Assembly (NCBI GenBank): GCA_965213885.1
Contig: OZ243919.1
Coordinates: 1,372,692-1,436,691, forward strand
Origin: Candidatus Poriferihabitaceae bacterium
Lineage (GTDB): Bacteria > Pseudomonadota > Gammaproteobacteria > Arenicellales > Poriferihabitantaceae
Direction of reading: 5' to 3'
DNA length: 64,000 nt
Numbering within the stretch: position 1 is the first letter of the stretch; every line of letters begins with the position of its first letter. A model generated the notes under the pieces. It had not been told where the DNA came from, searched no databases, and saw nothing but the letters and a program-made list of their open reading frames with translations. This document shows, piece after piece, positions 34,069 to 57,185 of the stretch. A program made the position numbers and the translations under genes.

Positions 34069-34208
34069 GTTAGATTGCGAGTTGGATTTGGATCACTATG
34101 AGGAAATCAAGATTAAACCAGGCCGGAACAGCCGGATATCCGCATGATTGTTGTACACCAGCCGGTCACTTTCGGTGTATCTGATTGTGATTCATCATTC
34201 TTGTATAT

Positions 34209-34225
34209 TGTATACCATATACCAA
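34209..34225. promoter_or_regulatory. Operator-like motif copy A in the sucC / FAH divergent intergenic region
   Basis: + strand TGTATACCATATACCAA, which is the reverse complement of TTGGTATATGGTATACA. It is nearly identical to the sites at 51481-51496 and 54867-54885. Confidence 0.5.
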
Positions 34226-34375
34226 GAGTACCACCCTATCCGGGTCTACACAATGCCCCGGCACCGGTGCTATCTTCCGCTCTTGTCCGCCGGCACCGGT
34301 TGACCGGACATGGTCCGTCAGCATCTGCACGTGAACATGCTGCAATACCCTCAACGATAACCCTGATTTTACTGT

Positions 34376-35161
34376 ATGGCTACCTGGATCCGATTCGAAA
34401 ATTCTGGAAATACCGCATTCGGTCTGCTTGAGCAGGCCTCCATCCGTGTGCACGAGGGGGACATGTTCGGACCCACGCAGGCCACCGGCGAGGTCGTGGC
34501 GCTCAGCGATGTCACTATCCTGACGCCCTGCGTTCCAGGCAAGATGCTGGCTCTGTGGAACAATTTCCATGCCACCATGGAAAAGACCGGTCTGCCGAAG
34601 CCCGGACATCCCTGGTACTTCGTCAAGACCCCGAATACCTATGCCCCCGCCGGCGCTGTGATCCGAAGACCCGACGCCTGCGGCGGCAAGGTGCTGTTCG
34701 AGGGAGAACTCGGCATTGTCATCGGCCGGGACTGCCACAATGTTTCGGTCGGGGATGCCGATGAATACATATTCGGCTATACCTGTATCAACGATGTGAC
34801 CGCGCTTGAGCATCTTTTCAGTGAGCAGAAGTTTGCCCACTGGACCAGGGCCAAGTGCTTTGACGGGTTCGGTGTGTTCGGGCCCGGCATCACCTGCGGC
34901 GTCAATCCGGATGAACTGGTCGTCATGACATACCTGGAAGGCGAAGGCGAAGTCCAGGAGCGGCAGAATTACCCTGTCAGCGACATGATCTACGGACCGC
35001 GGGAAATCGTGAGCCGCATCTCCCATGACATGACGCTGAATCCGGGAGACATCATCGCCTGCGGCACATCCGTGGGAGCCGGCGCCCTGAAGGACGGCTG
35101 GACCGTGCGCATCCTCATTGAAGGTGTCGGGGAACTTGTCAACCGCTATGACGGACGCTGA
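34376..35161 (+). CDS. Fumarylacetoacetate hydrolase (FAH) family protein
   Basis: 261 aa. GELGIVIGRDCHNVSVGDADEYIFGYTCINDVTA and the metal-binding acidic residues are typical of FAH/HpcE-like enzymes. Confidence 0.85.
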   Translation: MATWIRFENSGNTAFGLLEQASIRVHEGDMFGPTQATGEVVALSDVTILTPCVPGKMLALWNNFHATMEKTGLPKPGHPWYFVKTPNTYAPAGAVIRRPDACGGKVLFEGELGIVIGRDCHNVSVGDADEYIFGYTCINDVTALEHLFSEQKFAHWTRAKCFDGFGVFGPGITCGVNPDELVVMTYLEGEGEVQERQNYPVSDMIYGPREIVSRISHDMTLNPGDIIACGTSVGAGALKDGWTVRILIEGVGELVNRYDGR

Positions 35162-42768: not shown

Positions 42769-43773
42769 TCAGGCTGGCTGCCCCCTGACGGATATGCCCT
42801 GCTCCGACATGGTGTGATTGAGCAGGGATACGCAGGCATGGATTGCCTTCAGGGTAGGTATTGGGGTTCCGGTCATCTGAGCGAGTTCAATCACCACGCC
42901 AAGCATGCCGTCAATCTCCAGCGGCTTGCCTGCTTCGACGTCCTGCAACATGGACGTCTTGTGCTTGCCGACCTGTTCCGCCCCCTCGATCCGGCGCTCC
43001 AGGGACACCCGAAAGCTCGCGCCAAGTTTTTCCGCAACCTCCATGGCCTCGGTCATCATCGTTGCCGCCAACTCACGGGTCAGCGGATATCGGCAGATGG
43101 CTTCCAGGGTGGAATGCGTCATGGCGCTGATGGGATTGAAGCTCAGGTTGCCCCACAGCTTGAGCCAGATCTCTGAACGGATATCCTCCAGCACCGGTGA
43201 CTTGAAGCCTGCATCGACCAGTGTTTCAGAAACCCGCCTCGCCCGTTCAGACAGGTTGCCGTCGAGTTCGCCCAACGGGAAACGGGTGCCTTCGACGTGC
43301 CGGATCACGCCGGGTTCCGCGACCACGGCGGCCGGATAGGCGATGCACCCGAGGAGACAGTCCGGGTTGATACTGTTCAGCAGTACGCCGCCAGGATCCA
43401 CCGTCTCCACGACCCGGCCCTCATAGGCGCCCGGCAGTTTCTGGAAATACCACCAGGGAATACCGTTCTGCAGGGTGACCATCACGGTTTCGGGTCCGAT
43501 GATTCCCGGCAGCTTGTCAAGCACCGAGACGATCTGGTGGGATTTCAGCGCCAGCAGAACAACATCCTGCACGGGCAATTCCCCGATGTCATCCGTGGCG
43601 GCAACATTTCGGGCAACGATCTCCTCGTTGTCCTGCAGCAGCCTGAGGCCGCCTTGTCGGATCGCGGCCAGATGGGGGCCCCGTGCGATCAGGGAAATCT
43701 CGTGATCCCGTTGCGCCAGTCGGGTGCCCATGAAACCTCCGATGGCGCCAGCGCCTACGACACAGATTTTCAT
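42769..43773 (-). CDS. 2-dehydropantoate 2-reductase family (PanE/ApbA) oxidoreductase
   Basis: 334 aa with the Rossmann motif MKICVVGAGAIGG and a ketopantoate reductase C-terminal domain. Confidence 0.85.
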   Translation of the reverse strand: MKICVVGAGAIGGFMGTRLAQRDHEISLIARGPHLAAIRQGGLRLLQDNEEIVARNVAATDDIGELPVQDVVLLALKSHQIVSVLDKLPGIIGPETVMVTLQNGIPWWYFQKLPGAYEGRVVETVDPGGVLLNSINPDCLLGCIAYPAAVVAEPGVIRHVEGTRFPLGELDGNLSERARRVSETLVDAGFKSPVLEDIRSEIWLKLWGNLSFNPISAMTHSTLEAICRYPLTRELAATMMTEAMEVAEKLGASFRVSLERRIEGAEQVGKHKTSMLQDVEAGKPLEIDGMLGVVIELAQMTGTPIPTLKAIHACVSLLNHTMSEQGISVRGQPA

Positions 43774-44093: not shown

Positions 44094-44960
44094 TCAATGC
44101 ACCATGACGGTGACGATCCGGCTGTTCTTCAGAACATACTCGGTCACACCACCGAAAACCCTTTCCTGCATGCGGGAATGACTGTAGCCGCCCATGACCA
44201 GGAAATCGGCCTCGAGGTTCTTGCAGATAGCCAACAGCCGTTTTCCCACGGAAGCGGTCCTGCGATTCAGAATCTGGATTTCGGCCTTTGCACCGTGACG
44301 GCCGAGATGCTCCACGACCCGGTGCCCGATGCCATGCAGCTTGCGCGGAACCACTACGGTGACCTGTTTCATCTGAACCAGCCAGGGAATGGTCACGGAA
44401 AGAGCCCGGGACGACTCCAGGCTCTGGTTCCACGCAACCACCGCCCGCTGGGCCCGGTGCGCGACCCAGTCCGGGGGCACGAGCAGAGTTGGACTGCCGG
44501 AATGCAGCATCAGGGCGTCCAGATTGCTTTCCATGATGCTGCGCGACAGAAACCGCCCGAAATGCGTCGGGCGCATGACCGCGGTGGCGTCCACCATCCT
44601 CGCCCAGTTCACCAGGGTTTCCCGCACGTTGCCGGATTCATGGTGGAAGGAAACCGTGACCTGCTTCTGCCGGTTGCAGGGGGGGTCGCAAAGGGCAATC
44701 CGGCGTCTTTTCGCAAACGCCGTGAGGCGGCGCAGAATGTCGTCCGCCCGCTCCTTCAGTATCCTTCGTTCCTCGATCCTCGCATCCGCACGAAGCTTGT
44801 CCGGAAGATTGATCTCCCGGGCACTCAGTATCGTGCCTTCCGAAACATGCAGCACCATGATGTGGGATTCGAACCGGCGGGCCACCACGAGAGCGGCCTC
44901 CAGGACTTTCTGCATGTCGTCACGCCCGTCCGTGGGCACGAGAATGGACTTGATCGCCAT
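44094..44960 (-). CDS. Universal stress protein, tandem UspA domains
   Basis: 288 aa. MAIKSILVPTDGRDD... and the C-terminal GGYSHSRMQERVFGGVTEYVLKNSRIVTVMVH. Confidence 0.85.
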   Translation of the reverse strand: MAIKSILVPTDGRDDMQKVLEAALVVARRFESHIMVLHVSEGTILSAREINLPDKLRADARIEERRILKERADDILRRLTAFAKRRRIALCDPPCNRQKQVTVSFHHESGNVRETLVNWARMVDATAVMRPTHFGRFLSRSIMESNLDALMLHSGSPTLLVPPDWVAHRAQRAVVAWNQSLESSRALSVTIPWLVQMKQVTVVVPRKLHGIGHRVVEHLGRHGAKAEIQILNRRTASVGKRLLAICKNLEADFLVMGGYSHSRMQERVFGGVTEYVLKNSRIVTVMVH

Positions 44961-44984: not shown

Positions 44985-46652
44985 CTAGAAAAGGCCTTCC
45001 ACCTGCCCTGCTTCATTGATCCGGATACTGTTGGCTGCCGGCACCCTGGGCAGGCCGGGCATGGTCATGATATCACCACAGACCGCCACGACGAAACCAG
45101 CGCCCGCGGACAGCCGCACCTCCCGGACCGGCAGGACATGTCCCGTGGGTGCACCCTTCCTGTTCGGATCCGAGGAAAAGCTGTATTGCGTCTTGGCGAT
45201 GCAGACCGGCAAGTCGCCGAAGCCGGCCTCCTGCAGGTCCCGAATCTGGTTGCGGGTTTTCTGATCGGCGACGATCTCGTCGGCACGGTAGATCCGGGTG
45301 GCAACGGTCTCGATCTTCTCCCACAGCGGCATCTCATCCGGATACAGCGGGGCGAACTGGCTCTCCCCGCTGTCCGCCAGCTTCACGGCCTCCTCGGCCA
45401 GGGTCATGGTGCCGGCACCTCCGTCCGCCCAATGGGTAGCATCAATAGCCCGGACGCCCTGACTTTCGGTGGCCTCGCGTACCGCCGCCATTTCCGCGTC
45501 GGTATCCGCGCTGAAACGGTTGATGGCCACCACCACGGGAACCCCATAGGATTTCACGTTCTCGATATGGCGCTTCAGGTTGACGCAGCCGTCTTTCACC
45601 GCCTGTACGTTCTCGCTGCCGAGATCATCCCTGGCAACGCCGCCATGCATCTTGAGCGCACGCACAGTGGCCACGATCACCGCCGCATCCGGTGCCAGAC
45701 CCGCGCTGCGGCACTTGATGTCGAAGAATTTTTCCGCACCCAGGTCCGCGCCGAAGCCGGCCTCCGTCACCACATAATCCGCCAGCTTGAGAGCGGTACG
45801 TGTTGCCAGCACGGAATTGCATCCATGGGCGATGTTTGCGAACGGTCCGCCGTGGATGAATGCCGGATTGTGCTCAAGTGTCTGCACCAGATTGGGCGCC
45901 AGGGCGTCCTTGAGCAGCACGGTCATGGGGCCGGGCGCATTGACAGATTCCGCCCGGACAGGCTGGCGGGTACGGGTATAACCGATCACGATTCGACTCA
46001 GGCGCTCCTGCAGGTCCTCAAGACTCCCGGCAAGACAGAAAATGGCCATCACTTCCGAGGCAACGGTAATGTCGAAACCGTCCTCCCTGGGGAACCCGTT
46101 CGCCACACCGCCAAGGGAACTTGCGATCTGCCGCAGTGCCCTGTCATTCATGTCCACGACACGTCGCCAGGCCACCCGGCGAGTGTCCAGGCCGGCCTCG
46201 TTGCCCCAGTAGATGTGATTGTCGATCAGTGCCGACAACAGGCTGTGGGCGGATGTGATGGCGTGGAAGTCTCCGGTGAAATGCAGGTTGATGTCCTCCA
46301 TCGGGACCACCTGGGCATATCCGCCGCCGGCCGCCCCCCCCTTCATGCCGAAGCATGGCCCGAGGGAGGGTTCCCGCAGACAGACCATGGCGTTCTTGCC
46401 GATCCGGTTGAGACCGTCGGTCAGTCCCACGGAAGTCGTGGTCTTGCCTTCACCGGCCGGCGTCGGCGTGATGGCGGTTACGAGAATCAGCTTGCCGTCC
46501 GGCCTGTCCTGGATGGAATCGATATAGTCCAGGCTGACTTTGGCCTTGGTATGCCCGTAGGGCATCAGTGACTCGTTGGGAATGCCGAGCTTGTCGGCAA
46601 CTTCCCTGATGGGCCGAATTTCCGCCGCGCGGGCAATTTCGATATCGCTCAT
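44985..46652 (-). CDS. fhs: Formate--tetrahydrofolate ligase
   Basis: 555 aa. SDIEIARAA...[17 protein letters not shown] is canonical FTHFS. Confidence 0.96.
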
Positions 46653-46725
46653 GATCAGTCTCTCTATTGTTCAATCTTACGGTGTTGGCTGTAACCGGAC
46701 CCCTGCGGACATGCGTCGCAGGGAT

Positions 46726-47637
46726 TCAGTTTCCGAGCATGTCTCCAGGCACGAGTCCGGTCTGGGCAGCGTATTCGTTGGCCGGGATTTTTCCGCCATC
46801 CGCACGAACCCTGGAAACCCGGATGGAACCACCATCCGCGGCAACCTCGAATCCACCGTCATCCACTGCAATCACTTCTCCCGGCCTGCCTGTGCCTTCA
46901 CCCCGGACGGCATTGAAAATCTTCAGTTCCCTGCCGTGACGGGTGGTCCAGGCGCCGGGCTGGGGATTGGCGGCGCGGACAATGTTATAGACGTTTGCCA
47001 CGGGCCGCGTCCAATCCAACTCCGCCTCCTTCTTGCCAAACCACGACTCGTAGGATCCCTCGGCCAGGTTCTGCTCGATTCGCGGCGCCTTTCCTTCCCG
47101 CACGAGGTCGAGGGATTCGATCATGGCTTCGACCCCCATGGGAAACAGCTTGTTGAAGTAGACGTCCCCCAGCGTTTCATCCGGACCGATCCCGCAGGTT
47201 TTCTGCAACAGCATCGGGCCCTCGTCCAGTCCGTCGTCCGGCCAGAAAATGGTCAGGCCGGTGCGGGTGGCGCCCATGGCGATGGGCCAATTGATGGAAG
47301 ACGGCCCGCGGTGCATGGGCAGCAACGAGGGGTGATACTGGAAGGAACCGTGCTTCGGGATGTCGAGGACCGCCGAGGGTACGAACAGAAGTACATACGC
47401 CATCATGCAGATGTCGGCGTCAAAGGATTTCATCAGATCCAGGGCCTCGTCGGTCTTCCAGGACGCGGGCTGGTGCACCGCAAGGTCCCTTTCCAGCGCC
47501 AGCTCCTTCAACGGGTCCATGGGGCGTCCCTCCCTGTCGGGGGCAGTACAGATCGCCACCACGTTCTCGCCACGTTCCAGCAGCTTCTCCAGCACCGCGC
47601 GGCCGAAGGCCTGCTGCCCGTGTACAACTATTCTCAT
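46726..47637 (-). CDS. Stand-alone formyltransferase resembling the N-terminal domain of 10-formyl-THF dehydrogenase (Formyl_trans_N + Formyl_trans_C)
   Basis: MRIVVHGQQAFGRAV..., HGSFQYHPSLLPMHRGPSSINW and GLTIFWPDDGLDEGPMLLQK align by eye with ALDH1L1 (MKIAVIGQSLFGQEV; YHPSLLPRHRGASAINW; FTIFWADDGLDTGDLLLQK). Confidence 0.85.
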   Translation of the reverse strand: MRIVVHGQQAFGRAVLEKLLERGENVVAICTAPDREGRPMDPLKELALERDLAVHQPASWKTDEALDLMKSFDADICMMAYVLLFVPSAVLDIPKHGSFQYHPSLLPMHRGPSSINWPIAMGATRTGLTIFWPDDGLDEGPMLLQKTCGIGPDETLGDVYFNKLFPMGVEAMIESLDLVREGKAPRIEQNLAEGSYESWFGKKEAELDWTRPVANVYNIVRAANPQPGAWTTRHGRELKIFNAVRGEGTGRPGEVIAVDDGGFEVAADGGSIRVSRVRADGGKIPANEYAAQTGLVPGDMLGN

Positions 47638-47707
47638 GTTTCGTTCTCCAATTATGGGTGGGCCGTCATCGGCCCGGGGGCCGGCCCGTAAGAAGGGTCG
47701 TCAATCT

Positions 47708-48952
47708 TCAGACCACGCCGGCTTCCTGCATGGCGGCAACCTCGTCCCCGGAGTAGCCGAGCAGAGACAGGACTTCCTCGGTGTGTTCACCCAGCAGAGG
47801 CGAGCGCATCACGTCCACCGGGGAATCGGACAGCTTCACGGGGCATCCGACGGTCAGGTACTTGCCGCGCTCCGGGTGATCCACCTCAACGATGGTTCCG
47901 GTTTCGCGCAGCGAGGGTTCCTCGGCCAGCTCCCTCATGGACAGGATCGGACCCACCGGGATGTCCAGCGGATTGCAGATTTCCATGACCTCGAACTTGG
48001 TCTTGGTCATGGTCCATTGCTCGATGGCGCCAAACACCTCATTGAGCCTTGGCAGCCGGGCATCCGGAGTGGTGAAGTCCGGATCCTCCTTCCACTCGGG
48101 CATGCCGATCACGTCGCAGATCTTCTGCCACACTGCGGCCTGGGTGATAAAGTATGTGTATGCGTTGGGGTCTTCTTCCCAACCCTTGCATTTCAGGATC
48201 CGGCCGGGCTGGCCGCCGCCCGAATCGTTCCCGGACCTCGGCGTGGCGTCACCGAAGGGAATATTCTCGCCGTACTGGGAATACTCCTTGAGGGGGCCTG
48301 CAGCCAGACGCTGTTGATCGCGGAGCTTCACCCGGCAGAGATTCAGGACCCCGTCCTGCATCGGTGCCAGTATCCGCTGCCCCCGGCCGGATTTTTCACG
48401 GTGATACAACGCGGTCACGATTCCGAGCGCCAGGTGCAGACCGGTTCCGGAATCCCCGATCTGGGCTCCCGTCACCAGCGGAGGCCCGTCAAGGAACCCG
48501 GTTGTGGACGCGGAGCCGCCCGCACATTGGGCGACGTTCTCATACACCTTGCAATCCTCGTAGGGCCCCGGGCCAAACCCCTTGACCGATGCCATGATCA
48601 TGCGGGGATTGAGCGACTGCACCCGCTCCCAGCCGAAACCCATCCGGTCGAGGGCGCCCGGTGCAAAGTTTTCCACCAGGACATCGCATTCACCGATGAG
48701 TCGCTCCAGGACCTCCTTGCCGTCCGGCGTCTTGGTATTGAGTGTCAGGGAGCGCTTGTTGTGATTGAGCATGGTGAAATACAAAGAATCAGCCCCCGGC
48801 ACATCCACCAGTTGCTTGCGGGTGGCATCACCCACACCAGGGCGTTCGACCTTGATGACATCTGCACCGAACCAGGCCAGCAGCTGCGTGCATGTCGGCC
48901 CTGACTGGACATGGGTGAAATCAAGGATCCTTACACCTTCAAGTGCCTTCAT
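47708..48952 (-). CDS. frc: Formyl-CoA:oxalate CoA-transferase
   Basis: Very high similarity by eye to E. coli Frc: [51 protein letters not shown] and [14 protein letters not shown]. Confidence 0.93.
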
Positions 48953-48984
48953 ATTCGAGAACTCCCGTTATTGAATGTTTGAGA

Positions 48985-50724
48985 TTACTTGTACATGGTC
49001 TGGGCCTTGGTACCCGGTGCGTATTCATCCGGGTCCACCCAGACATTCACCACGGCGCACATCCCGGTTCTAGCGATGGCTTCCCTGGCACGTTGCAGTG
49101 CAGGCTGGATCTGGCTCGCATCCCGCACTTCTTCGCCGTAGCCGCCGATCATCTGTCCGAACATGCTAAAGGGCACGTCACCGAGCTTGTTCCCCACATC
49201 GCCACGCTCAGCGCCGTACTTGGCGATCTGGCCGTAGCGGATCTGGTTCATTGCGGAGTTGTTGCCCACGACGGCCAGGTACGGAGCACCGAACCGCTGG
49301 GAGGTTTCCATGTCGAAGGCGGTCATGCCGAAAGACCCGTCGCCGTACAGGCAGACCACCTCTTTTTGCGGATGCGCCAACTTGGCGGCCATGGCAAATC
49401 CCGTGCCGACACCGAGTGATCCCAGGGCGCCCGGGTCCATCCATTGCCCTGGCCTGCGTGGCCGCACCGCCTGGGCGGAAATGGTGACGATATCCCCACC
49501 GTCGCCGATGTAGATGGTGTCTTCCCCGAGGAACCGGTTGATCTCATAGGCCAGGCGATACGGATGGATCGGGTTCTGGTCAGTGGTGAACATGGGCATC
49601 AGCTTCTCCAGCTTTTGCCCCTCGATCCCGCGAAGCTGTTTCATCCATTCCTGGCGTTTCTGTCTGGCCCCCCGGTCGATCCGCCCGGATGCGGCCTGGG
49701 TCACGGCGGTGAGAACGGCACCGGGGTCACCGGCGATGCCGAGCGCAACATCCCGGTTCTTGCCGACGGTGGCGTAACTCTGGTCGATCTGCACCAGCAC
49801 CAGGTCCTGCGAAATCCGCTTGCCGTATCCCATGCGGAAATCGAACGGCGTTCCGACGATCAGAATCACATCCGCGTTGGAAAAGGCATCCCTGCGGGTC
49901 CGATCGAAATGATGGGGATCATCTTCCGGAAGCATGCCCCGGCTGGCCCCGTTCATGTAGGCGGGAATGTCCAGCGCCCGTATGAATTCGATGGCCTGCT
50001 CATGGCCCTGCGAGGCCCAGACCTGTTGCCCGAACAGCACCGCCGGACGTTCTGACTTGACCAGGATATCAGCCAGTTTCTCGATGTCCGCCGGGTCTCC
50101 GATGGCTTTCGTGGACGACCGGTAATGCCCGGGCTTCGGGACGACCGCCTTTTCCATCGGAATTTCCGCATCCAGAATATCCCTGGGAATTTCGAGGTAG
50201 GAGGGACCGTAGGCGCCGTTGAAACACTCCCTGGCCGCCATGGAGACCATGTCCGCCACCCTCTCGGTGGAGAATACTCCGGAGGCGAACTTGGTGATGG
50301 GAGCCATCATGTCCACATGGGGCAAATCCTGCAGAGAGCCCATCTTGTGCTGAGTCAGCGAACTTTGGCCGCCGATATGGAGAATGGGGCTTTCGGATCG
50401 AAACGCCGTGGCGATTCCGGTCACCGCGTTGGTGCAGCCCGGACCGGCGGTGGTCACCACGCAACCCAGCTTTCCCGTCTGGCGCGCGTAGCCATCCGCG
50501 GCGTGGGCGGCAGTCTGTTCGTGGCGCACATCCACGATGCGGATGCCCTCGTCGATGCATCCGTCGTAGATATCGATGATGTGACCGCCGCACAGGGTGA
50601 AAATGGTATCCACGCCCTCGTTTGCCAGGGCCTTGGCGACCAGATGTCCACCGGAAACCACTGCTCCGCTTTTGTCCTTTTGCGCCAGCGTGTCGGTGGC
50701 GGTGTCTCTGCTGCTGTCGTTCAT
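48985..50724 (-). CDS. oxc: ThDP-dependent enzyme, probable oxalyl-CoA decarboxylase
   Basis: Acetolactate-synthase-like fold with the ThDP motif GDGSFGMTAFDMETSQRFGAPYLAVVGNN. The assignment to Oxc rests on adjacency to frc. I prefer the start at ATG 50724 (GGAGAA SD). Confidence 0.7.
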   Translation of the reverse strand: MNDSSRDTATDTLAQKDKSGAVVSGGHLVAKALANEGVDTIFTLCGGHIIDIYDGCIDEGIRIVDVRHEQTAAHAADGYARQTGKLGCVVTTAGPGCTNAVTGIATAFRSESPILHIGGQSSLTQHKMGSLQDLPHVDMMAPITKFASGVFSTERVADMVSMAARECFNGAYGPSYLEIPRDILDAEIPMEKAVVPKPGHYRSSTKAIGDPADIEKLADILVKSERPAVLFGQQVWASQGHEQAIEFIRALDIPAYMNGASRGMLPEDDPHHFDRTRRDAFSNADVILIVGTPFDFRMGYGKRISQDLVLVQIDQSYATVGKNRDVALGIAGDPGAVLTAVTQAASGRIDRGARQKRQEWMKQLRGIEGQKLEKLMPMFTTDQNPIHPYRLAYEINRFLGEDTIYIGDGGDIVTISAQAVRPRRPGQWMDPGALGSLGVGTGFAMAAKLAHPQKEVVCLYGDGSFGMTAFDMETSQRFGAPYLAVVGNNSAMNQIRYGQIAKYGAERGDVGNKLGDVPFSMFGQMIGGYGEEVRDASQIQPALQRAREAIARTGMCAVVNVWVDPDEYAPGTKAQTMYK

Positions 50725-50761: not shown

Positions 50762-51457
50762 TCAATCGAGATAGTCGACATACTGCTTGATGTGCTCGGC
50801 GAGAGTCATTGCATGCTCCCGCACCAGTTGTTCCGCCATGGTGGCATCACGGGCTTCCACTGCCCTGATGATGCGCATGTGGTCGATGATCGACTCCGTG
50901 GCCCGATCCCGTTCACCAATGGTTTTTCTGCGGATGGCGCGCATGTGCATGAACAGGCCATCGGTGATTTCCTTCAACAGGCGGCACTTGCTGAGCTCGA
51001 TCAGCCGCTGGTGAAAGAGGATATTGGTATCCGAGTATTCGTCGATGTGGGCCCTCGCCTCATGACTTTCATCGAAGGTGGCGAACATGCGGCGCATGGA
51101 AGCGATCTCTTCATCACTCGCGTTCTCGGTGACCAGGCGCGCGGCCATGCCCTCGAGCCCCGCCCAGACACAGACGATTTCCAGAATCTCCGCTTTCGAC
51201 TTGCGGACCACGAAGGCGCCACGGCGAGGATAGGTTTTCACCAGCCCCTCCTGTTCGAGGCGTGTAATGGCCTCACGGATCGGGGTCCTGCTGACACCCA
51301 GGTTCATCGCAAGCTTCCGCTCATCCAGCTTGGGTGGTTCTTCGCCGGAATAGATGTCCATGCCGGATATCGCATCCTTGATGGCCTGATAGACCGATTC
51401 CTTGAGCCCCGGAGTAGCCTCCAGGGGTTTAACCGTAACGATGCTGTCAGAACTCAT
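50762..51457 (-). CDS. GntR-family transcriptional regulator, FadR/FCD subfamily
   Basis: 231 aa. wHTH (ERKLAMNLGVSRTPIREAITRLEQEGLV) plus an all-helical FCD domain. Confidence 0.88.
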   Translation of the reverse strand: MSSDSIVTVKPLEATPGLKESVYQAIKDAISGMDIYSGEEPPKLDERKLAMNLGVSRTPIREAITRLEQEGLVKTYPRRGAFVVRKSKAEILEIVCVWAGLEGMAARLVTENASDEEIASMRRMFATFDESHEARAHIDEYSDTNILFHQRLIELSKCRLLKEITDGLFMHMRAIRRKTIGERDRATESIIDHMRIIRAVEARDATMAEQLVREHAMTLAEHIKQYVDYLD

Positions 51458-51473: not shown

Positions 51474-51497
51474 CGGTATCTGGTATCTGGTATACAA
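51474..51497. promoter_or_regulatory. Operator-like motif copy B, immediately upstream of the GntR gene
   Basis: CGGTATCTGGTATCTGGTATACAA carries three GGTAT units. The core TGGTATCTGGTATACA (51481-51496) differs by 1 nt from copies A and C. Confidence 0.45.
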
Positions 51498-51533: not shown

Positions 51534-53063
51534 TCAGCCCTGCCCTTGTCCCATTCCCAGATTGCGGCGCCTGTAACGAATGAGTTTCTGGATGAGCGGA
51601 TAACAGATGAGCGCCAGCGCGATCAGGATACAGACTGCGGAGATGGGACGGGTCATGAACACGGTCACGTCTCCGTGAGAGGCCAGCAGGGATTGTCGCA
51701 ATGAACGCTCGGCCAGGGGGCCCAGCACGATCGCCAGTACCGCGGGCGCCACGGGGTAGTTCAGTTTTCTGAGCAGATAGCCCACCACACCGAACAACAG
51801 CATCAGCCAAACGTCGTGCATGGTCTGGGTGGGTGCATAACCGCCCACCACGCAGAGAATGTAGATAATCGGCGCCAGGATGGAAAACGGCAGCGTCAGT
51901 ATCTTGACGAAAAGCGGGATAAACGCCAGGTTGATCACCAGGGTTGCGAAATTCGCGATGTACAGCGACCCGATCAGGCCCCACACGAATTCCGGATTCT
52001 CGGTGAACAGCAGCGGACCCGGTCTGAGCCCCCAGATGATCATGCCCCCCAGCAGGATGGCGGTCGTCGGCGATCCCGGGATTCCCAGGGTGATCATGGG
52101 CAGCATGGAGCCGGTGGAGGCAGCGTTGTTGGCCGCCTCCGGTGCAGCGACGCCCCCCACATTGCCCTTGCCGAAACTGTCGGGATCCTTACTGAAGGTT
52201 TTCGCCAGGCCGTAGGACATCAGGGAGGCCGGGGTTGCTCCCGCGGCAGGCAGGGTGCCGACGAAGTAGCCGAGCACCGATCCCAGGGAGGTTGTTCCGA
52301 TATAGTTCTTGATGTCCCTGAAATTGCTCTTCATCCTTTCCAGGGAAATCTGGACCTTGTGCACCATCACTTCACCCTTGGTGGTTTCCAGGGTCCAGAG
52401 CATTTCCCCGATGCCGTAAATACCGATGGCAAGCACCAGAAAGTTGATGCCATGGAGGAATCCGTCGATGTCGCCGAAAATGAGTCTCGGCTGACCGGAA
52501 ATGATGTCAAGGCCGACCGCCGCCAAGACCAGTCCGATGAGTATGGAAAAGATGGTTTTGGGAATATCGTCCCCACCAAGCCCGATGAACGTGGCGAAGG
52601 CCATGATCATCAGGGCGAATTCCTCCGCTGGCCCGAACCTGAGCGCAAAGGATGCCAGCGGTGGCGCGAACAGGGTGAACAGCACCACGGAGATGGTGCC
52701 GCCGACGAAAGAGGCCACCGCTGCGGCGGTCAGCGCCCTGTCTGCCTGCCCCGACTGGGCAAGCGGCCTGCCGTCGAACACCGTTGCTACCGCGGTGGAT
52801 GCCCCGGGTATGCCCAGCGTGATCGAACTGATGGCACCCCCGTACATCGCGCCGTAATAGATTGCCGCAAGGAAGATGATCGCGGCGGTGGGCGGTACGA
52901 TGAAGGTGATGGGAAGCAGGATGGCCACCCCGTTGACCGAACCAAGGCCAGGCATGGCGCCGATCAGCAGTCCCAGCGCACAGCCGATGATGATCATCAT
53001 GAAATTGAGTGGCTGCATCGCCTCGGCCAAGCCACCCATCAGATGAAGAAAAATGTCTTCCAC
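51534..53063 (-). CDS. tctA: Tripartite tricarboxylate transporter large permease
   Basis: 509 aa, about 12 TM, with a typical TctA N-terminus (LMGGLAEAMQPLNFMMIIIGCALGLLIGAMPGLG). Confidence 0.92.
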   Translation of the reverse strand: MEDIFLHLMGGLAEAMQPLNFMMIIIGCALGLLIGAMPGLGSVNGVAILLPITFIVPPTAAIIFLAAIYYGAMYGGAISSITLGIPGASTAVATVFDGRPLAQSGQADRALTAAAVASFVGGTISVVLFTLFAPPLASFALRFGPAEEFALMIMAFATFIGLGGDDIPKTIFSILIGLVLAAVGLDIISGQPRLIFGDIDGFLHGINFLVLAIGIYGIGEMLWTLETTKGEVMVHKVQISLERMKSNFRDIKNYIGTTSLGSVLGYFVGTLPAAGATPASLMSYGLAKTFSKDPDSFGKGNVGGVAAPEAANNAASTGSMLPMITLGIPGSPTTAILLGGMIIWGLRPGPLLFTENPEFVWGLIGSLYIANFATLVINLAFIPLFVKILTLPFSILAPIIYILCVVGGYAPTQTMHDVWLMLLFGVVGYLLRKLNYPVAPAVLAIVLGPLAERSLRQSLLASHGDVTVFMTRPISAVCILIALALICYPLIQKLIRYRRRNLGMGQGQG

Positions 53064-53144: not shown

Positions 53145-53651
53145 TTACGAATACATCAGGTCGTAGATCGGATAGAACATCGGTTCCGTGATGGACTTCG
53201 GCAGCGGAATCTTGAGTGCCCACTCAAACAGGCAGAAAATGAAAACCGGAACCAGGACCATCATGGCAACCGTGATCAGCCAGGAATGCCTGCCGACAAA
53301 CCTGAGATAGAACAGCAGGAACAGGAACAGCGCGACATAGATGCCCAGCAGGTGTGTCACAACCAGGAGAAATACGATGGACCCCGCTGATATCCCCACC
53401 AGCAGGGCGACTTCCCTGGTCATGTAGGGCTCAAGGTTCCTGGACTCCGGGGTGGTTCCGCGAAACCACCGGAACATGGTGGCTACACAGGCCAACAGCA
53501 TGCCTGCCGAAAGCCAGAACGGCCAGGCACCCGAACCGGGCCCCCTGTCAGGTACCCATCCGATCCTGAGTTCCGCACTCTTGACCATGAGCCCTATGGA
53601 GCACAGTGCGAGCAGTACTGCCATCAGGATTTCTGCGGTACGGACTGTCAT
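53145..53651 (-). CDS. tctB: Tripartite tricarboxylate transporter small permease
   Basis: About 168 aa, 4 TM, located between tctC and tctA. The ATG at 53651 has a GAGG SD; the track start at 53693 remains possible. Confidence 0.75.
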   Translation of the reverse strand: MTVRTAEILMAVLLALCSIGLMVKSAELRIGWVPDRGPGSGAWPFWLSAGMLLACVATMFRWFRGTTPESRNLEPYMTREVALLVGISAGSIVFLLVVTHLLGIYVALFLFLLFYLRFVGRHSWLITVAMMVLVPVFIFCLFEWALKIPLPKSITEPMFYPIYDLMYS

Positions 53652-53824
53652 GGTGGTTACCTCGTTGGTGGTCACCGTCCTCCTGCCCGTCATTCAGGAC
53701 ATCGGGCGGCTCACAGAACAGTGATGCTGTATCCGGCATCACCCTCCTCGGGGATGCCGGCCGGAGCGGCGATACAACGCCGCCCCGGCCATTGTCGACA
53801 AACGGTTATCGATATGGAATCGAA

Positions 53825-54832
53825 TTACTCGCCGGTGATCGCAGTTGCACCGACGGATTCGATCAGTTCCTTGTGCAGGGCAATCTGCTGGGTATGGTAC
53901 GTACCAAGGTCATCACCGGCCAGCCACTGGTCGCAGGCCAGGCCATCATCCGTGCAGAATTTCTGCCACTCCGCGGATTCAAACAGCGTCTTGAACAGGT
54001 TGATGTACCAATCCTGAGCCTCCTGGGACATTCCCGGAGGTCCGTTGATGGAACGCTGCATGTAGTACTCCATGTTTACCCCCAGTTCGTTCGCAGTGGG
54101 AACGTCCGGATAGGCGGGAAGGCGCTCTGCCGTGAACTGAACGATGGGCTTGGTTTCCCCGGCACGGTAGAACTCGTTCTGCTCGGCCGGGTTGTTCACC
54201 GTGGAGTCGACGTGGTTGCCCACCAGGTTCTTGGCCACCGTGCCACCGCCCGGGAATGGGATGTAGGTCACGTCGTAACCGAACTCCTTCTCCATCATCG
54301 CAGTCAGGATGGAATCCTCCTGGCCGGTGCCGGTGCCGCCGACTTTCCAGTTGTTGCCGGCAGCCTTGACGGCGGCCACATAGCTGTCAAGATCGGTGAT
54401 GTCTTCGCGCCCGCTGTTAACCCAGAGCACGAAGTTGTCGATCGCCATCCGGCCGATGGGCGTGAAGTTTGACACGTCCACGCCGATGCCCTTCTGTATG
54501 ACCGGTGTGGTGTAGAAGCTGTTCAACGTTACGAGGATGGTATGGTCGTCACCGTCCTTGTCCTGGATGTAGCGCAATGCCTCTGCGCCGGAACCTCCGG
54601 GCTTGTTGATCGGGATGATGGGCCGTGGCGAGAGGTCCTTCTTCTCGATCAGACCCTGCAGCAGTCGGGCAATCTGGTCAGCACCTCCACCGGCCCCCGC
54701 CATGATGATCAGCTCAACGGGCTTTTTCGGGGACCACTCGGCCATCGCAGGAGCCGAAAGCCCCAATGATGTCGCGGTGGCAACGGCAACCGGAACAGCC
54801 GCCTTTTTTAACTTAGAAAGTACAGTACACAT
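53825..54832 (-). CDS. tctC: Tripartite tricarboxylate transporter substrate-binding protein (Bug/TctC family)
   Basis: 335 aa with a signal peptide ending SAPAMA and Bug-family motifs (IIMAGAGGGADQIARL; NKPGGSGAEAL). Confidence 0.9.
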   Translation of the reverse strand: MCTVLSKLKKAAVPVAVATATSLGLSAPAMAEWSPKKPVELIIMAGAGGGADQIARLLQGLIEKKDLSPRPIIPINKPGGSGAEALRYIQDKDGDDHTILVTLNSFYTTPVIQKGIGVDVSNFTPIGRMAIDNFVLWVNSGREDITDLDSYVAAVKAAGNNWKVGGTGTGQEDSILTAMMEKEFGYDVTYIPFPGGGTVAKNLVGNHVDSTVNNPAEQNEFYRAGETKPIVQFTAERLPAYPDVPTANELGVNMEYYMQRSINGPPGMSQEAQDWYINLFKTLFESAEWQKFCTDDGLACDQWLAGDDLGTYHTQQIALHKELIESVGATAITGE

Positions 54833-54866: not shown

Positions 54867-54885
54867 TTGGTATATGGTATACCAA
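54867..54885. promoter_or_regulatory. Operator-like motif copy C, 35-53 nt upstream of tctC
   Basis: TTGGTATATGGTATACCAA has 8-nt inverted arms TTGGTATA/TATACCAA and contains the 10-bp palindrome TGGTATACCA. Confidence 0.5.
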
Positions 54886-55038: not shown

Positions 55039-55911
55039 TCAGGATATCATGGATTTAGCGATGGCACCGATCTCCACGGGGCTGTCGACAACGTGCACCC
55101 CGGCAGCGGCCAGGGCTGCTTTTTTCGTCGCCGCCGTTCCGTTGCCGGACTGAATGATGGCGCTGGCATGGCCCATGCGGGTTTCCGTTGGCGCATGTTC
55201 CCCTGCAATGTATGCGAGCACGGGCTTGCCAAACTCGTGAGAGCCCAGGTATTCCGCGGCACGTTCCTCCTCGGTGCCACCGATTTCACCCACCAGCACC
55301 ACGAGTTCGGTCTCCCCGTCATTGCCGAACCTCTCCAGGCAGTCAACGAAGCCGAGGCCATGCAACGGATCGCCACCGATTCCCACGCAGGTGGACTGCC
55401 CCAGCCCGGCATCGGTGGTCTGCCATACCGCTTCATAGGTCAGTGTACTGGACCGGGATATGATGCCCGCCCGGCCGCGCCGGAAAATCTGCCGGGGCAT
55501 GATGCCGATACGACATTCCTCCGGAGTAATGATGCCGGGCGTGTTCGGGCCGAGGAGAAGACTGCGGCTTCCATCCAGCCTCTCCCGGACCCGGGCCATG
55601 TCGAGAACCGGAATATGCTCCGTGATGCAGATGATCAGGGGAATTTCCGCATCGATTGACTCCAGTATCGCGTCCGCCGCCCGATCCTTGGGCACAAAGA
55701 TCACACTGGCATTGGCATCCGTGTCGGCACGGGCCGTCAGCACATCGTCATAGACCGGCAGGCCCAGATGCCTGCTGCCCCCCTTGCCCGGGCGTACGCC
55801 TGCCACCATGCGGGTGCCGAATGAAATGGCACGTTCGGTGTAGAAACTCGCCTGGTTGCCGGTGATTCCCTGGCAAAGCACCCGCGTTTCACTGTCCACC
55901 AGTATCGACAT
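55039..55911 (-). CDS. Succinyl-CoA-synthetase-like (ADP-forming acid-CoA ligase) alpha subunit, second and divergent copy
   Basis: 290 aa. The CoA-binding N-terminus and phosphohistidine loop RMGHASAII are conserved, but [10 protein letters not shown] and other segments differ from the sucD at 32024-32899. Confidence 0.85.
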
Positions 55912-57185
55912 TACCCCCTGCCCTCCTGAGACTGACCGCTGACTCTCTGAATAATCTTCTGCAGCCAGCCCTCCTGCGTCCTGGGGTCGGCAGTTTTCCC
56001 GGTCCGCGCCAACTGCACCGCGAGTTGCGCACCTTCGGCCATGTTTGTCGCCAGGACCACACCGGGCATTCCCTCCCGCAACCGCCGGTTGGCAAGTTCC
56101 GAATTGGTGCCGGCAAGACGTACCACCAGGGGAACGCGGAAAGGTCGCACGCGGTTGATGACCTGGATGGCATCGGACACGGTGTCACAACGCATGATGC
56201 CCCCGCCGAACACGTTGATGAACAGACAGCGAATTCCGTCCCCGCCGAGCAACAGCTCCAGGGCGCTGGTTACCCGGTTGACCTTGGAATCCGGGGGAAG
56301 ATCAAGGAAATTGGCCGGCCGGCCGCCGAATTGCACCAGAGCATCCAGAGTCGCCATGGACAACCCCGCTCCCACCGTCATGCATGCAATGTCGCCACCC
56401 ATGCGTATGTAATTGAATCCATCACTGCTGGCCCTGCGTCGGTTGCCGCTTTCCGACTCCTCCGCTTCCATCCGCAACAGGGTCTCCTGGCGGTAGAGGG
56501 CATTGTCATCCGCAATGATCTTGGCATCCAGGGCAATGTACTCCCCGCCCGTGATGCCCACCGGATTGATTTCAAGCAGCGTGAGGTCACGCTCCCGTGC
56601 CAGGGTGACCATCCTGCCGGCAAGATCCCGCATGGACTCCGCTTCATTCCCCGTGAATCCATAACGATCCAGCGCCGCATCCAGTTTTGCCGCATCCGGA
56701 CCATGATCGAGGGAGACCGGAACGGCGGCCACGGCATCCGGCCTGTGCCTCAGACTGTCCTCGATGCCGGTACCGCCCTCCGGCGAAACCAGCAGCACGA
56801 AGGACTGGTTGAATTCATCCATCAGCAGCGACAGTGACACCTCCCGCTCCACTTTCAACGCCAGTTCAACATAAACGCGTTCCACCGGCATCCCCTCCGG
56901 TCCGGTCTGGGCGGTGATCAGGTTCCTGCCCAACATGCTGCGGGCATCCGCACCCACATTGACGAGCGTCTTCGCGGCACGAATGCCCGACTTGAGGTCC
57001 TGACCCCTGAAGCTTCCCTCGGCGCGGCCGCCGGCGGGAATCTGTGCCTTCACCATCCACTCGTCCCCGCCGATATCCCGGGCAACCGCCTCGGCTTCCT
57101 CCGGGGATTCTGCAGCCTGGCCCGCGGGAACCCTGATGCCGTAATCCCGCAGTAGCGCCTTCGCCTGGTATTCGTGGAGATTCAT
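55911..57185 (-). CDS. Succinyl-CoA-synthetase-like beta subunit (ATP-grasp), divergent paralogue with a C-terminal extension
   Basis: 424 aa. MNLHEYQAKALLRDYGIRVP... is SucC-like, but the body is much more diverged than the sucC at 32899-34068. It shows the same 1-nt TAATG-style overlap with its alpha subunit. Confidence 0.8.
   Translation of the reverse strand: MNLHEYQAKALLRDYGIRVPAGQAAESPEEAEAVARDIGGDEWMVKAQIPAGGRAEGSFRGQDLKSGIRAAKTLVNVGADARSMLGRNLITAQTGPEGMPVERVYVELALKVEREVSLSLLMDEFNQSFVLLVSPEGGTGIEDSLRHRPDAVAAVPVSLDHGPDAAKLDAALDRYGFTGNEAESMRDLAGRMVTLARERDLTLLEINPVGITGGEYIALDAKIIADDNALYRQETLLRMEAEESESGNRRRASSDGFNYIRMGGDIACMTVGAGLSMATLDALVQFGGRPANFLDLPPDSKVNRVTSALELLLGGDGIRCLFINVFGGGIMRCDTVSDAIQVINRVRPFRVPLVVRLAGTNSELANRRLREGMPGVVLATNMAEGAQLAVQLARTGKTADPRTQEGWLQKIIQRVSGQSQEGRG

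Follow-up and report, generated by a model that had tools for sequence, protein, structure and literature searches.

A minus-strand gene cluster within a 64,000-nucleotide stretch of the genome of Candidatus Poriferihabitaceae bacterium (contig OZ243919.1; this whole stretch is called the window below) encodes an enzyme that depends on thiamine diphosphate (ThDP), the formyl-coenzyme A (CoA):oxalate CoA-transferase Frc, a formyltransferase that we call FT, and the formate-tetrahydrofolate (THF) ligase Fhs. Sequence and neighborhood comparisons indicate that FT is probably a 10-formyl-THF:CoA formyltransferase, which in the reverse direction would act as a formyl-CoA:THF formyltransferase, and that, paired with Fhs, it would connect formate to formyl-CoA in an ATP-coupled manner. 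In the proposed scheme, Fhs would carry out the step formate + ATP + THF <-> 10-formyl-THF + ADP + Pi and FT the step 10-formyl-THF + CoA <-> formyl-CoA + THF, the formyl group being moved between N10 of THF and the thiol of free CoA by a His102/Ser104/Asp138 triad that FT has in common with the N-terminal domain of 10-formyl-THF dehydrogenase (FDH; ALDH1L1). The two enzymes would amount to an ADP-forming formate:CoA ligase that works in two steps by way of folate (formate + ATP + CoA <-> formyl-CoA + ADP + Pi), and with Frc the net reaction would be oxalate + ATP + CoA <-> oxalyl-CoA + ADP + Pi, with formate as the catalyst. We infer both the acceptor thiol, CoA, and the direction of the transfer.

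Among proteins of solved structure, FT was most similar to FDH hydrolase domains. These ranked first in phmmer searches of the PDB (4qpd, E = 4.9e-57; 1s3i, E = 2.6e-55; range to 1e-54; 189 to 196 bits), followed by Fmt (5.9e-43; 128 to 150 bits), ArnA (1e-23; 78 to 87 bits) and HypX (1e-11; 47 bits), and identity to the FDH/ALDH1L1 hydrolase domain was approximately 45% over 250 residues. A preliminary description of this DNA had called the protein a stand-alone ALDH1L1-N-like homologue, and this was borne out. FT residues His102, Ser104, Asp138 and Tyr196 correspond to FDH His106, Ser108, Asp142 and Tyr200 and were invariant among 81 orthologues. The same alignment contained 88 invariant positions, mostly in the N subdomain; the N-domain was nearly invariant and the C-domain only weakly conserved. 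An AlphaFold2 model of FT (pLDDT 93.9) showed a Rossmann-like N subdomain and an OB-like C subdomain, and its top Foldseek match was 4QPD (E = 5.5e-35, TM 0.88). Thus, FT resembles the FDH N-domain (4qpd, 1s3i, 2bw0) in its two-subdomain architecture, its His/Ser/Asp triad and its Tyr200 equivalent, and this domain was both the best sequence match and the top fold match.

FT is a relative of this domain and not an FDH, because the protein ends after the C subdomain at 303 amino acids, carries no fused acyl carrier protein (ACP)-like or aldehyde dehydrogenase (ALDH) domain, and has no ACP or ALDH gene conserved near it in the neighborhoods of the related loci described below. FDH, with its fused ACP-like and ALDH domains, serves folate catabolism and uses a tethered 4'-phosphopantetheine as the thiol, whereas FT is a free-standing bacterial protein of an oxalate operon whose presumed thiol is free CoA. 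Additionally, Gln100 of FT stands where FDH has Ile104. Proteins retrieved in a search of representative sequences were mostly stand-alone and of approximately 300 amino acids, with a few fusions of FDH length. One apparent fusion, a 610-amino-acid open frame in related locus L088, was rejected, as its upstream part proved to be a TauE gene in another frame.

Housekeeping methionyl-tRNA formyltransferase (Fmt) was considered as an identity for FT and rejected. FT scored 134.2 bits on the fmt equivalog TIGR00460, under the cut-off of 201.5, and the genome, which was searched as a single 3.56-Mb contig, has its own fmt at 258656-259558 (283.7 bits against the same cut-off). The two proteins share the Formyl_trans_N and Formyl_trans_C domains, the fold (TM 0.88 to 0.93) and the motifs HxSLLPxxRG and GLDxGP. 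However, FT lacks the loop-1 insertion with which Fmt recognizes tRNA and has a short, FDH-like REGRPMDP segment where its own genome's Fmt has RPAGRGRRLTPSP; Gln100 takes the place of the Asn that is catalytic in Fmt and GART and that precedes the His by two residues; and the C-domain is variable. The genomic contexts differ as well, being def-fmt for Fmt and catabolic for FT. The net charge of the FT C-domain relative to that of Fmt, counted by hand, was not informative. Wherever FT-type proteins are named in annotations, the name is methionyl-tRNA formyltransferase.

Formyl transfer from 10-formyl-THF to a thiol has been described for relatives of FT. The FDH hydrolase domain natively passes the formyl group of 10-formyl-THF to the 4'-phosphopantetheine thiol, and the N-domain of HypX has been assigned the transfer from 10-formyl-THF to free CoA (PMC6802093). 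In 2025, the stand-alone Fmt-like protein LctF was reported to make formyl-CoA from 10-formyl-THF and CoA in vitro (PMC11730586). The earlier statement that no formyl-CoA:THF formyltransferase had been characterized is therefore out of date. LctF, from the lactacystin pathway of Streptomyces lactacystinicus (PMC11730586), parallels the proposed FT exactly in its described reaction, with a stand-alone Fmt-like architecture and free CoA as the acceptor; unlike FT, it belongs to secondary metabolism, feeds the loading module of a polyketide synthase (PKS), is reported to be 32% identical to Fmt and is not associated with frc, oxc or fhs. The HypX N-domain (6j0p; PMC6802093) likewise has an FDH-N-like fold, THF binding, His and Asp catalytic residues and a proposed CoA formylation, but it is distant from FT (E = 1e-11, TM 0.71), its third triad residue is Asp80 and not Ser, and it is joined to a domain resembling enoyl-CoA hydratase, in which CoA is bound and formyl-CoA is decarbonylated to CO. 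A literature search for formyltransferases in oxalate operons turned up only LctF and HypX, neither on oxalotrophy, and recent oxalotrophy reviews mentioned no formyltransferase and no enzyme linking the oxalate pathway to folate. What is new here is a known chemistry and fold family in an undescribed metabolic role, that of oxalate metabolism.

The neighborhood of FT was compared in 80 loci from species-representative genomes (FT identity, 65 to 93%; each count refers only to loci with room for the gene in question), drawn from at least 565 related FT loci in such genomes. Cultured bacteria that carry FT include Filomicrobium insigne CGMCC 1.6497, Paracoccus albicereus and a Hyphomicrobium sp. 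Frc was encoded directly upstream of FT in 74 of 77 loci, which puts the frc-FT arrangement far beyond chance; Fhs followed directly downstream in 48 of 65, and a formyl-CoA-forming ThDP enzyme lay upstream in 61 of 65. The adjacency of FT to frc and fhs spans Alpha- and Gammaproteobacteria and reaches more distant relatives, since at 45 to 54% FT identity six of seven loci had Frc/OXC (oxalyl-CoA decarboxylase) beside FT and the seventh had Fhs. A class-level sample added six genomes with the same linkage. Frc itself was secure, as the preliminary description had supposed (NF003809, 724 bits against a cut-off of 442; TIGR03253 match over residues 2 to 414 of 414; GGGQPG loop and QIGDSGTG motif present), and so was the formate-THF ligase (Table 1); each occurs once in the genome.

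To these neighborhoods we added a co-occurrence sample of 400 evenly drawn Pseudomonadota genomes and the window's own genome. Of these 401 genomes, 22 contained Frc and 8 contained FT, and all 8 FT-positive genomes were Frc-positive (FT in 0 of 379 Frc-negative genomes), which is to be read as a pattern and not as a test statistic, since related genomes are not independent. Even where FT was unlinked, as in three genomes of Paracoccaceae, Frc was still present elsewhere. The proposed role of an FDH-N homologue as a link between formyl-CoA and 10-formyl-THF is favored by its almost invariable adjacency to frc and fhs, its strict nesting within Frc-positive genomes and the chemistry of FDH.

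A variant of the cluster without Frc occurs in an abundant marine lineage (L094 to L096, with the cluster at L094:4675-12550; GCA_004212825.1; at least 24 marine metagenome contigs). Its order is tctC-tctB-tctA, a ThDP enzyme of the same type as in the window (type A; 87% identical), FT (57% identical) 58 nt downstream, aceK and an amidase, and no gntR, frc or fhs was found within 17.7 kb. As FT directly follows the ThDP enzyme here, formyl-CoA is the common denominator of its neighbors, and each conserved neighbor of FT has formyl-CoA or 10-formyl-THF as a substrate or product.

The type A ThDP enzyme had been described as a probable oxalyl-CoA decarboxylase; it does not belong to the canonical OXC family and can be called an OXC analogue only by context. 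It scored below every NCBIfam cut-off (PRK05858, 444 against 587 bits; the 2-hydroxyacyl-CoA lyase [HACL] family NF058623, 355.8 against 600; OXC PRK09259, 216 against 557), and its best PDB relative was AcHACL (E = 2e-77), ahead of the O. formigenes OXC (9e-43). Canonical OXC occupies the same slot in 41 related loci (964 to 1030 bits in the three tested), and the window enzyme was only 23 to 26% identical to the OXCs of related operons. We compared 21 type A orthologues and 42 OXCs in an alignment, taking the O. formigenes and AcHACL numbering from printed alignments. All 21 had Leu-Gln in place of OXC Tyr120-Glu121 and no counterpart of Tyr483, Ser553 and Arg555; at the oxalyl-binding positions of OXC, the type A sequences instead show the segment NNSAMNQ and end in a PGTKAQTMYK tail. 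Ile replaces the acid/base Glu493 of AcHACL, and the equivalent of Gln128 is present. Roles have been described for the five OXC residues, and loss of Glu493 in AcHACL cuts lyase activity 10- to 50-fold (PMC8760513). The enzyme has invariant motifs of its own, namely HKMGSLQDLPH, GNNSAMNQIRYG and the PGTKAQTMYK tail. By these sequence criteria type A is a separate clade of the HACL/OXC superfamily and a member of neither family, because the five OXC residues and the Glu493 of AcHACL are missing and the family cut-offs were not reached. It shares with both the three-domain layout of CoA-ester-dependent ThDP enzymes that release formyl-CoA, and with OXC also the operon slot. Across the best 120 database matches, type A proteins were 86 to 96% identical and, where a name was given, went by no more than "TPP-binding protein" or "acetolactate synthase."

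The distribution of the two ThDP types bears on the function of type A. In a tree of concatenated Frc and FT sequences from 66 loci, the ThDP type changed at least seven times, and at least five of these changes were forced by well-supported branches. Within the Granulosicoccaceae both types are found, accompanied by shared orthologues of TctC, GntR, Frc and FT (TctC identity, 78 to 81%). Canonical OXC was absent from five of the six type A genomes tested (the window's, where none was found elsewhere in the genome, and four of the five others), and canonical Frc was present. Because of these repeated swaps in the same slot and the lack of OXC in most type A genomes, a functional replacement is the parsimonious reading, and on balance we lean toward type A being an unorthodox oxalyl-CoA decarboxylase that supplies formyl-CoA. 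A true 2-hydroxyacyl-CoA lyase or synthase, interconverting glycolyl-, lactyl- or tartronyl-CoA with formyl-CoA and a carbonyl compound such as glyoxylate, is a possible alternative on the unlikely side. Its best structural relatives are indeed HACLs and not OXCs, it has the Gln of HACL and acetolactate synthase (ALS; AcHACL Gln128) in place of the OXC Tyr-Glu pair, and it pairs with FT in the absence of Frc, beside aceK, in the marine lineage. However, a lyase with Ile at the position of Glu493 would be expected to be impaired (PMC8760513), it would have to have replaced OXC repeatedly in operons otherwise orthologous down to TctC, GntR and Frc, and the canonical Frc of most type A genomes would have no OXC to work with.

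The Frc/OXC cycle conserves one CoA thioester per turn and creates none. On oxalate, the main role of FT and Fhs would be to create and top up the formyl-CoA/oxalyl-CoA pool, which would be drained by a PanE-like reductase that converts oxalyl-CoA to glyoxylate; when oxalyl-CoA arises from glyoxylate oxidation, the pair could work in reverse and regain ATP. If the enzyme function is as proposed, we slightly favor the top-up direction, formate to formyl-CoA, over the reverse, because the Frc/decarboxylase cycle cannot create a thioester and loses some to glyoxylate reduction, and because there is a precedent in E. coli YfdE. Reduction of oxalyl-CoA to glyoxylate is known for M. extorquens PanE2 and for C. 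necator ApbA2, which is encoded beside frc-oxc, and enzymes of the PanE/ApbA type are also able to form oxalyl-CoA from glyoxylate (PMC7486775). By analogy, the PanE/ApbA-family reductase of the window is a candidate oxalyl-CoA reductase or CoA-acylating glyoxylate dehydrogenase. YfdE, as outlined in PMC3720670, is an acetyl-CoA:oxalate CoA-transferase in the frc-oxc operon yfdXWUVE and primes the Frc/OXC cycle. The E. coli operon, on that account, also has an extra enzyme feeding new CoA thioester to the cycle (PMC3720670), but that enzyme is a family III CoA-transferase working with acetyl-CoA, whereas the primer proposed here is the folate-dependent pair of FT and Fhs, working with formate and ATP.

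The preliminary description had FT working in the opposite sense, with formyl-CoA passing its formyl group to THF and ATP gained downstream. That direction is thermodynamically easier, but it brings no net energy advantage if oxalate is activated by Frc, and the conserved trio of Frc, FT and Fhs is no less compatible with synthesis of formyl-CoA from formate and ATP. We consider it rather unlikely that FT serves solely as a drain, from formyl-CoA to 10-formyl-THF and on to biosynthesis or, by reverse Fhs, to formate plus ATP and then to an NAD-dependent formate dehydrogenase. Transfer from a thioester to an amide is downhill, and several features of the loci suit a drain: in the Frc-less marine variant FT comes right after the formyl-CoA-forming ThDP enzyme, with fhs not nearby; fdsB-fdsA follows fhs directly in several relatives (L007, L008, L058 and L100); aceK and aceA lie a few kb from the cluster, and aceK adjoins it in L094 and L102; and the genome has malate synthase G but no glyoxylate carboligase. 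PanE/ApbA enzymes making oxalyl-CoA from glyoxylate (PMC7486775) would also yield stoichiometric formyl-CoA with no oxalate to accept the CoA. However, if oxalate enters through Frc, a drain into THF consumes the sole CoA donor on which the next oxalate depends, so that a separate ATP-dependent activation is needed and nothing is gained; the candidate ligase for such an activation, a SucCD-like pair, was present in just 20 of 40 loci with full flanks; and both precedents, LctF and HypX, run toward formyl-CoA. The suggested link to NAD-linked formate dehydrogenase is nevertheless plausible, since fdsBA follows fhs in the relatives named above and the window's fdsBA, located downstream of sucCD, lies behind one copy (at 34208) of the operator-like palindrome described below. 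The FT/Fhs pair may well work near equilibrium.

Several points weigh against a 10-formyl-THF:CoA formyltransferase in an oxalate pathway. No CoA-binding site is identifiable in FT, and HypX binds the CoA nucleotide in a domain that FT lacks. The isolated FDH N-domain hydrolyzes 10-formyl-THF in vitro, and no PurU above cut-off was found in the genome. The Foldseek comparison did not separate FDH-N from Fmt, with a TM of 0.88 for both, so that the modeled fold matches Fmt equally well. FT was missing from 14 of the 22 Frc-positive genomes, and type A lacks every OXC residue that binds the oxalyl carboxylate. Formyl transfer from an amide to a thioester is probably uphill by approximately 10 kJ/mol according to textbook hydrolysis energies; therefore, the top-up direction needs to be pulled by Frc and the reductase. 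Finally, by simple stoichiometry every route costs the same ATP, so that the energy balance favors neither direction.

The main alternative to the whole CoA/folate interpretation is a 10-formyl-THF hydrolase analogous to PurU, which would release formate and regenerate THF with no part for CoA. The absence of PurU would leave room for such an enzyme, its nearest solved homologues are named hydrolase domains, and the catalytic residues, including the Tyr200 equivalent, are conserved. Still, we regard this role as improbable: beside fhs it would set up an ATP-wasting futile cycle, a general task in the folate pool leaves unexplained both the restriction of FT to genomes with Frc (8 of 22, compared with 0 of 379 without it) and its position directly after frc in 74 of 77 loci, and hydrolysis by FDH itself stands in for formyl transfer to the thiol of pantetheine (PMC6802093). 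More improbable still is that FT formylates some other acceptor (an amine metabolite, carrier-protein phosphopantetheine or a special tRNA) with 10-formyl-THF made by Fhs from oxalate-derived formate, for although the Formyl_trans_N/C architecture is common to Fmt, ArnA and sugar N-formyltransferases, the C-terminal OB-like domain is kept and automated pipelines name the protein Met-tRNA formyltransferase, FT is under the fmt cut-off in a genome with a real fmt elsewhere, its C-domain is poorly conserved next to a nearly invariant N-domain, no carrier-protein or amine-metabolizing gene is conserved in its neighborhood, and all of its conserved neighbors handle formyl-CoA or 10-formyl-THF.

A palindrome, T[GT]GTATAC[CA]A, offers a view of how the genes proposed to act with FT may be regulated. 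It had nine matches in the 3.56-Mb genome, three of them in the window and all three intergenic (Table 1), and the flanks of the window copies extend the palindrome as GTATA(T)...ATACC. The motif also occurred in 45 of the 80 related loci, with 33 sites before gntR, 16 before the SucCD-like pair (divergent promoters counted), 12 before tctC, 2 before frc and 1 before panE; none of these 60-odd sites fell inside any mapped cluster gene. The palindrome is likely to be an operator for GntR regulators of the FCD family, as predicted from these placements. The GntR/FCD regulator of the cluster would control tctCBA, the operon and the SucCD-like ligase through the TGGTATACCA operator, which would tie the transporter, the operon and the ligase together and gives some support to a link with formate dehydrogenase. 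The six further copies in the genome include some next to another TctC/PdxA-family locus and another GntR/FCD gene. Specificity of the palindrome for the cluster's own GntR was rejected on these grounds; it is a family-type operator, and therefore the assignment of the copy at 34208 to the cluster regulator is only tentative.

Table 1. Genes and operator-like sites in and around the oxalate cluster (window coordinates; scores in bits)
Feature	Position	Strand	Remarks
ThDP enzyme (type A)	48985-50724	-	TPP_enzyme_N, M and C domains; ATG at 50724 after GGAG
Frc, formyl-CoA:oxalate CoA-transferase	47708-48952	-	TIGR03253 709.9, cut-off 504.2
FT, stand-alone 303-aa formyltransferase	46726-47637	-	Pfam Formyl_trans_N and Formyl_trans_C
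Fhs, formate-THF ligase	44985-46652	-	NF010030 924, cut-off 652; Pfam FTHFS 899
GntR/FCD-family transcriptional regulator	50762-51457	-	Pfam GntR and FCD
tctC	53825-54832	-	Pfam TctC
tctB	53145-53693	-	Pfam TctB
tctA	51534-53063	-	Pfam TctA
Tandem universal stress protein (Usp)	44094-44960	-	Two Pfam Usp domains; 24 nt 3' of fhs
PanE/ApbA-family reductase	42769-43773	-	Pfam ApbA and ApbA_C; NF005089 440
SucCD-like acid-CoA ligase, beta	55911-57185	-	Pair with Pfam ATP-grasp_2, CoA_binding and Ligase_CoA
SucCD-like acid-CoA ligase, alpha	55039-55911	-	See beta subunit
NAD-linked formate dehydrogenase, fdsA	27360-30107	-	fdsA and fdsB: Pfam molybdopterin and Nuo51
NAD-linked formate dehydrogenase, fdsB	30108-31805	-	See fdsA
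FAH (fumarylacetoacetate-hydrolase)-family gene	34376-35161	+	Divergent from sucCD-fdsBA; common intergenic region holds third operator-like copy
Operator-like site TTGTATACCA	51488-51497		Upstream of gntR; 30-40 nt from gntR start
Operator-like site TGGTATACCA	54875-54884		Upstream of tctC; the region's sole sigma-70-like promoter match overlaps it
Third operator-like palindrome copy	34208-34217		Between sucCD-fdsBA (-) and the FAH-family gene (+)

Every gene between 42.7 and 57.2 kb lies on the minus strand, in the order SucCD-like pair, tctC, tctB, tctA, gntR, ThDP enzyme, frc, FT, fhs, Usp and PanE/ApbA. Four co-directional genes after gntR with gaps of 32 to 73 nt had been reported, and this arrangement was confirmed: the gaps are 37 nt between gntR and the ThDP gene, 32 nt between the latter and frc, 70 nt between frc and FT, and 73 nt between FT and fhs, and a GGAG-type ribosome-binding site precedes the start of each of the last four genes. 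We infer that the cluster is co-transcribed. A simple scan of the minus strand gave no convincing intrinsic terminator between cluster genes, and apart from the promoter-like site at tctC nothing in the terminator and promoter scans rose above the shuffled background. An 8-bp GC-rich stem-loop (CCCTGCGG...CGCAGGG) occupies positions 46701-46723 between FT and fhs; it has no T-tract on the coding strand and could have an RNA-processing or stabilizing role. Over the FAH-gene and operator region, a minus-strand open reading frame at 34166-35026 matched no family and is perhaps not a real gene.

Conservation of the flanking genes varied. Among the 40 loci with full flanks, the gntR orthologue was present in 35, TctA in 33, and a Usp gene after fhs in 12; a PanE/ApbA-family gene after the cluster recurs in gammaproteobacterial loci. 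The tctCBA genes are the likely uptake system for the substrate, oxalate. The beta subunit of the diverged SucCD-like pair scored 358 bits, just under the SucC cut-off of 370; the pair might join CoA to oxalate, formate or succinate and so supply the same thioester pool. It stands beside the oxalate cluster in about half of the related loci (for example, L079:6408-8498), and in the three Paracoccaceae genomes whose FT is unlinked, no other neighbor of gntR-FT is conserved.

Other recurrent features were seen at single groups of loci. In L039, L089 and L090, a second Frc paralogue (62 to 66% identical) lies directly upstream of the main frc and, by analogy with YfdE, may be a CoA-transferase with another donor or acceptor. 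An unannotated protein of approximately 600 amino acids, U605, is encoded at the downstream end of the cluster in L019 (16775-18592), L101 (7550-9328), L016, L018, L020, L021, L025, L028, L035 and L102, after tctA in Alphaproteobacteria and after panE in Gammaproteobacteria. Its sole signal was a weak central match to P-loop kinases (Zeta_toxin/AAA_33), with no PDB relative; for U605 and U265, another recurrent neighbor, searches of Pfam, NCBIfam and the PDB gave no match beyond this weak P-loop kinase signal. U605 is absent from the window's genome, where a mobile-element scar follows panE. Two loci from unexpected sources, L072 (titled Leptospira interrogans) and L033 (a metagenome-assembled genome [MAG] of Bacteroidota), carry Hyphomicrobiaceae-like oxalate clusters and fell inside alphaproteobacterial clades of the Frc and FT tree, which suggests assembly contamination or mis-binning and not transfer.

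If the folate-dependent formyl-CoA bridge exists as proposed, it would explain how many marine and soil bacteria start or replenish the oxalate cycle or recover energy from it, and it would join two pools of activated C1 units in central metabolism and not in a specialized pathway. It would also correct the name methionyl-tRNA formyltransferase wherever FT-type proteins carry one; related loci in species-representative genomes number at least 565. Surveys based on oxc miss the type A enzyme, a whole and highly conserved marine clade that is named just "TPP-binding protein." Synthetic pathways for the assimilation of formate by way of formyl-CoA currently lack, to our knowledge, an efficient route to formyl-CoA, and FT and type A are of interest for such pathways. 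The most far-reaching form of the proposal, which we consider speculative and unlikely as a whole, is that FT and Fhs constitute a natural, folate-mediated, reversible formyl-CoA synthetase (ADP-forming) that yields ATP on oxalyl-CoA derived from glyoxylate through the PanE-like dehydrogenase, and that type A is a new catalytic solution for producing formyl-CoA, or for consuming it as a synthase, that dispenses with the known catalytic residues of OXC and HACL. Were it true, the oxidation of glyoxylate or oxalate would give aerobic marine bacteria substrate-level phosphorylation from a formyl thioester.

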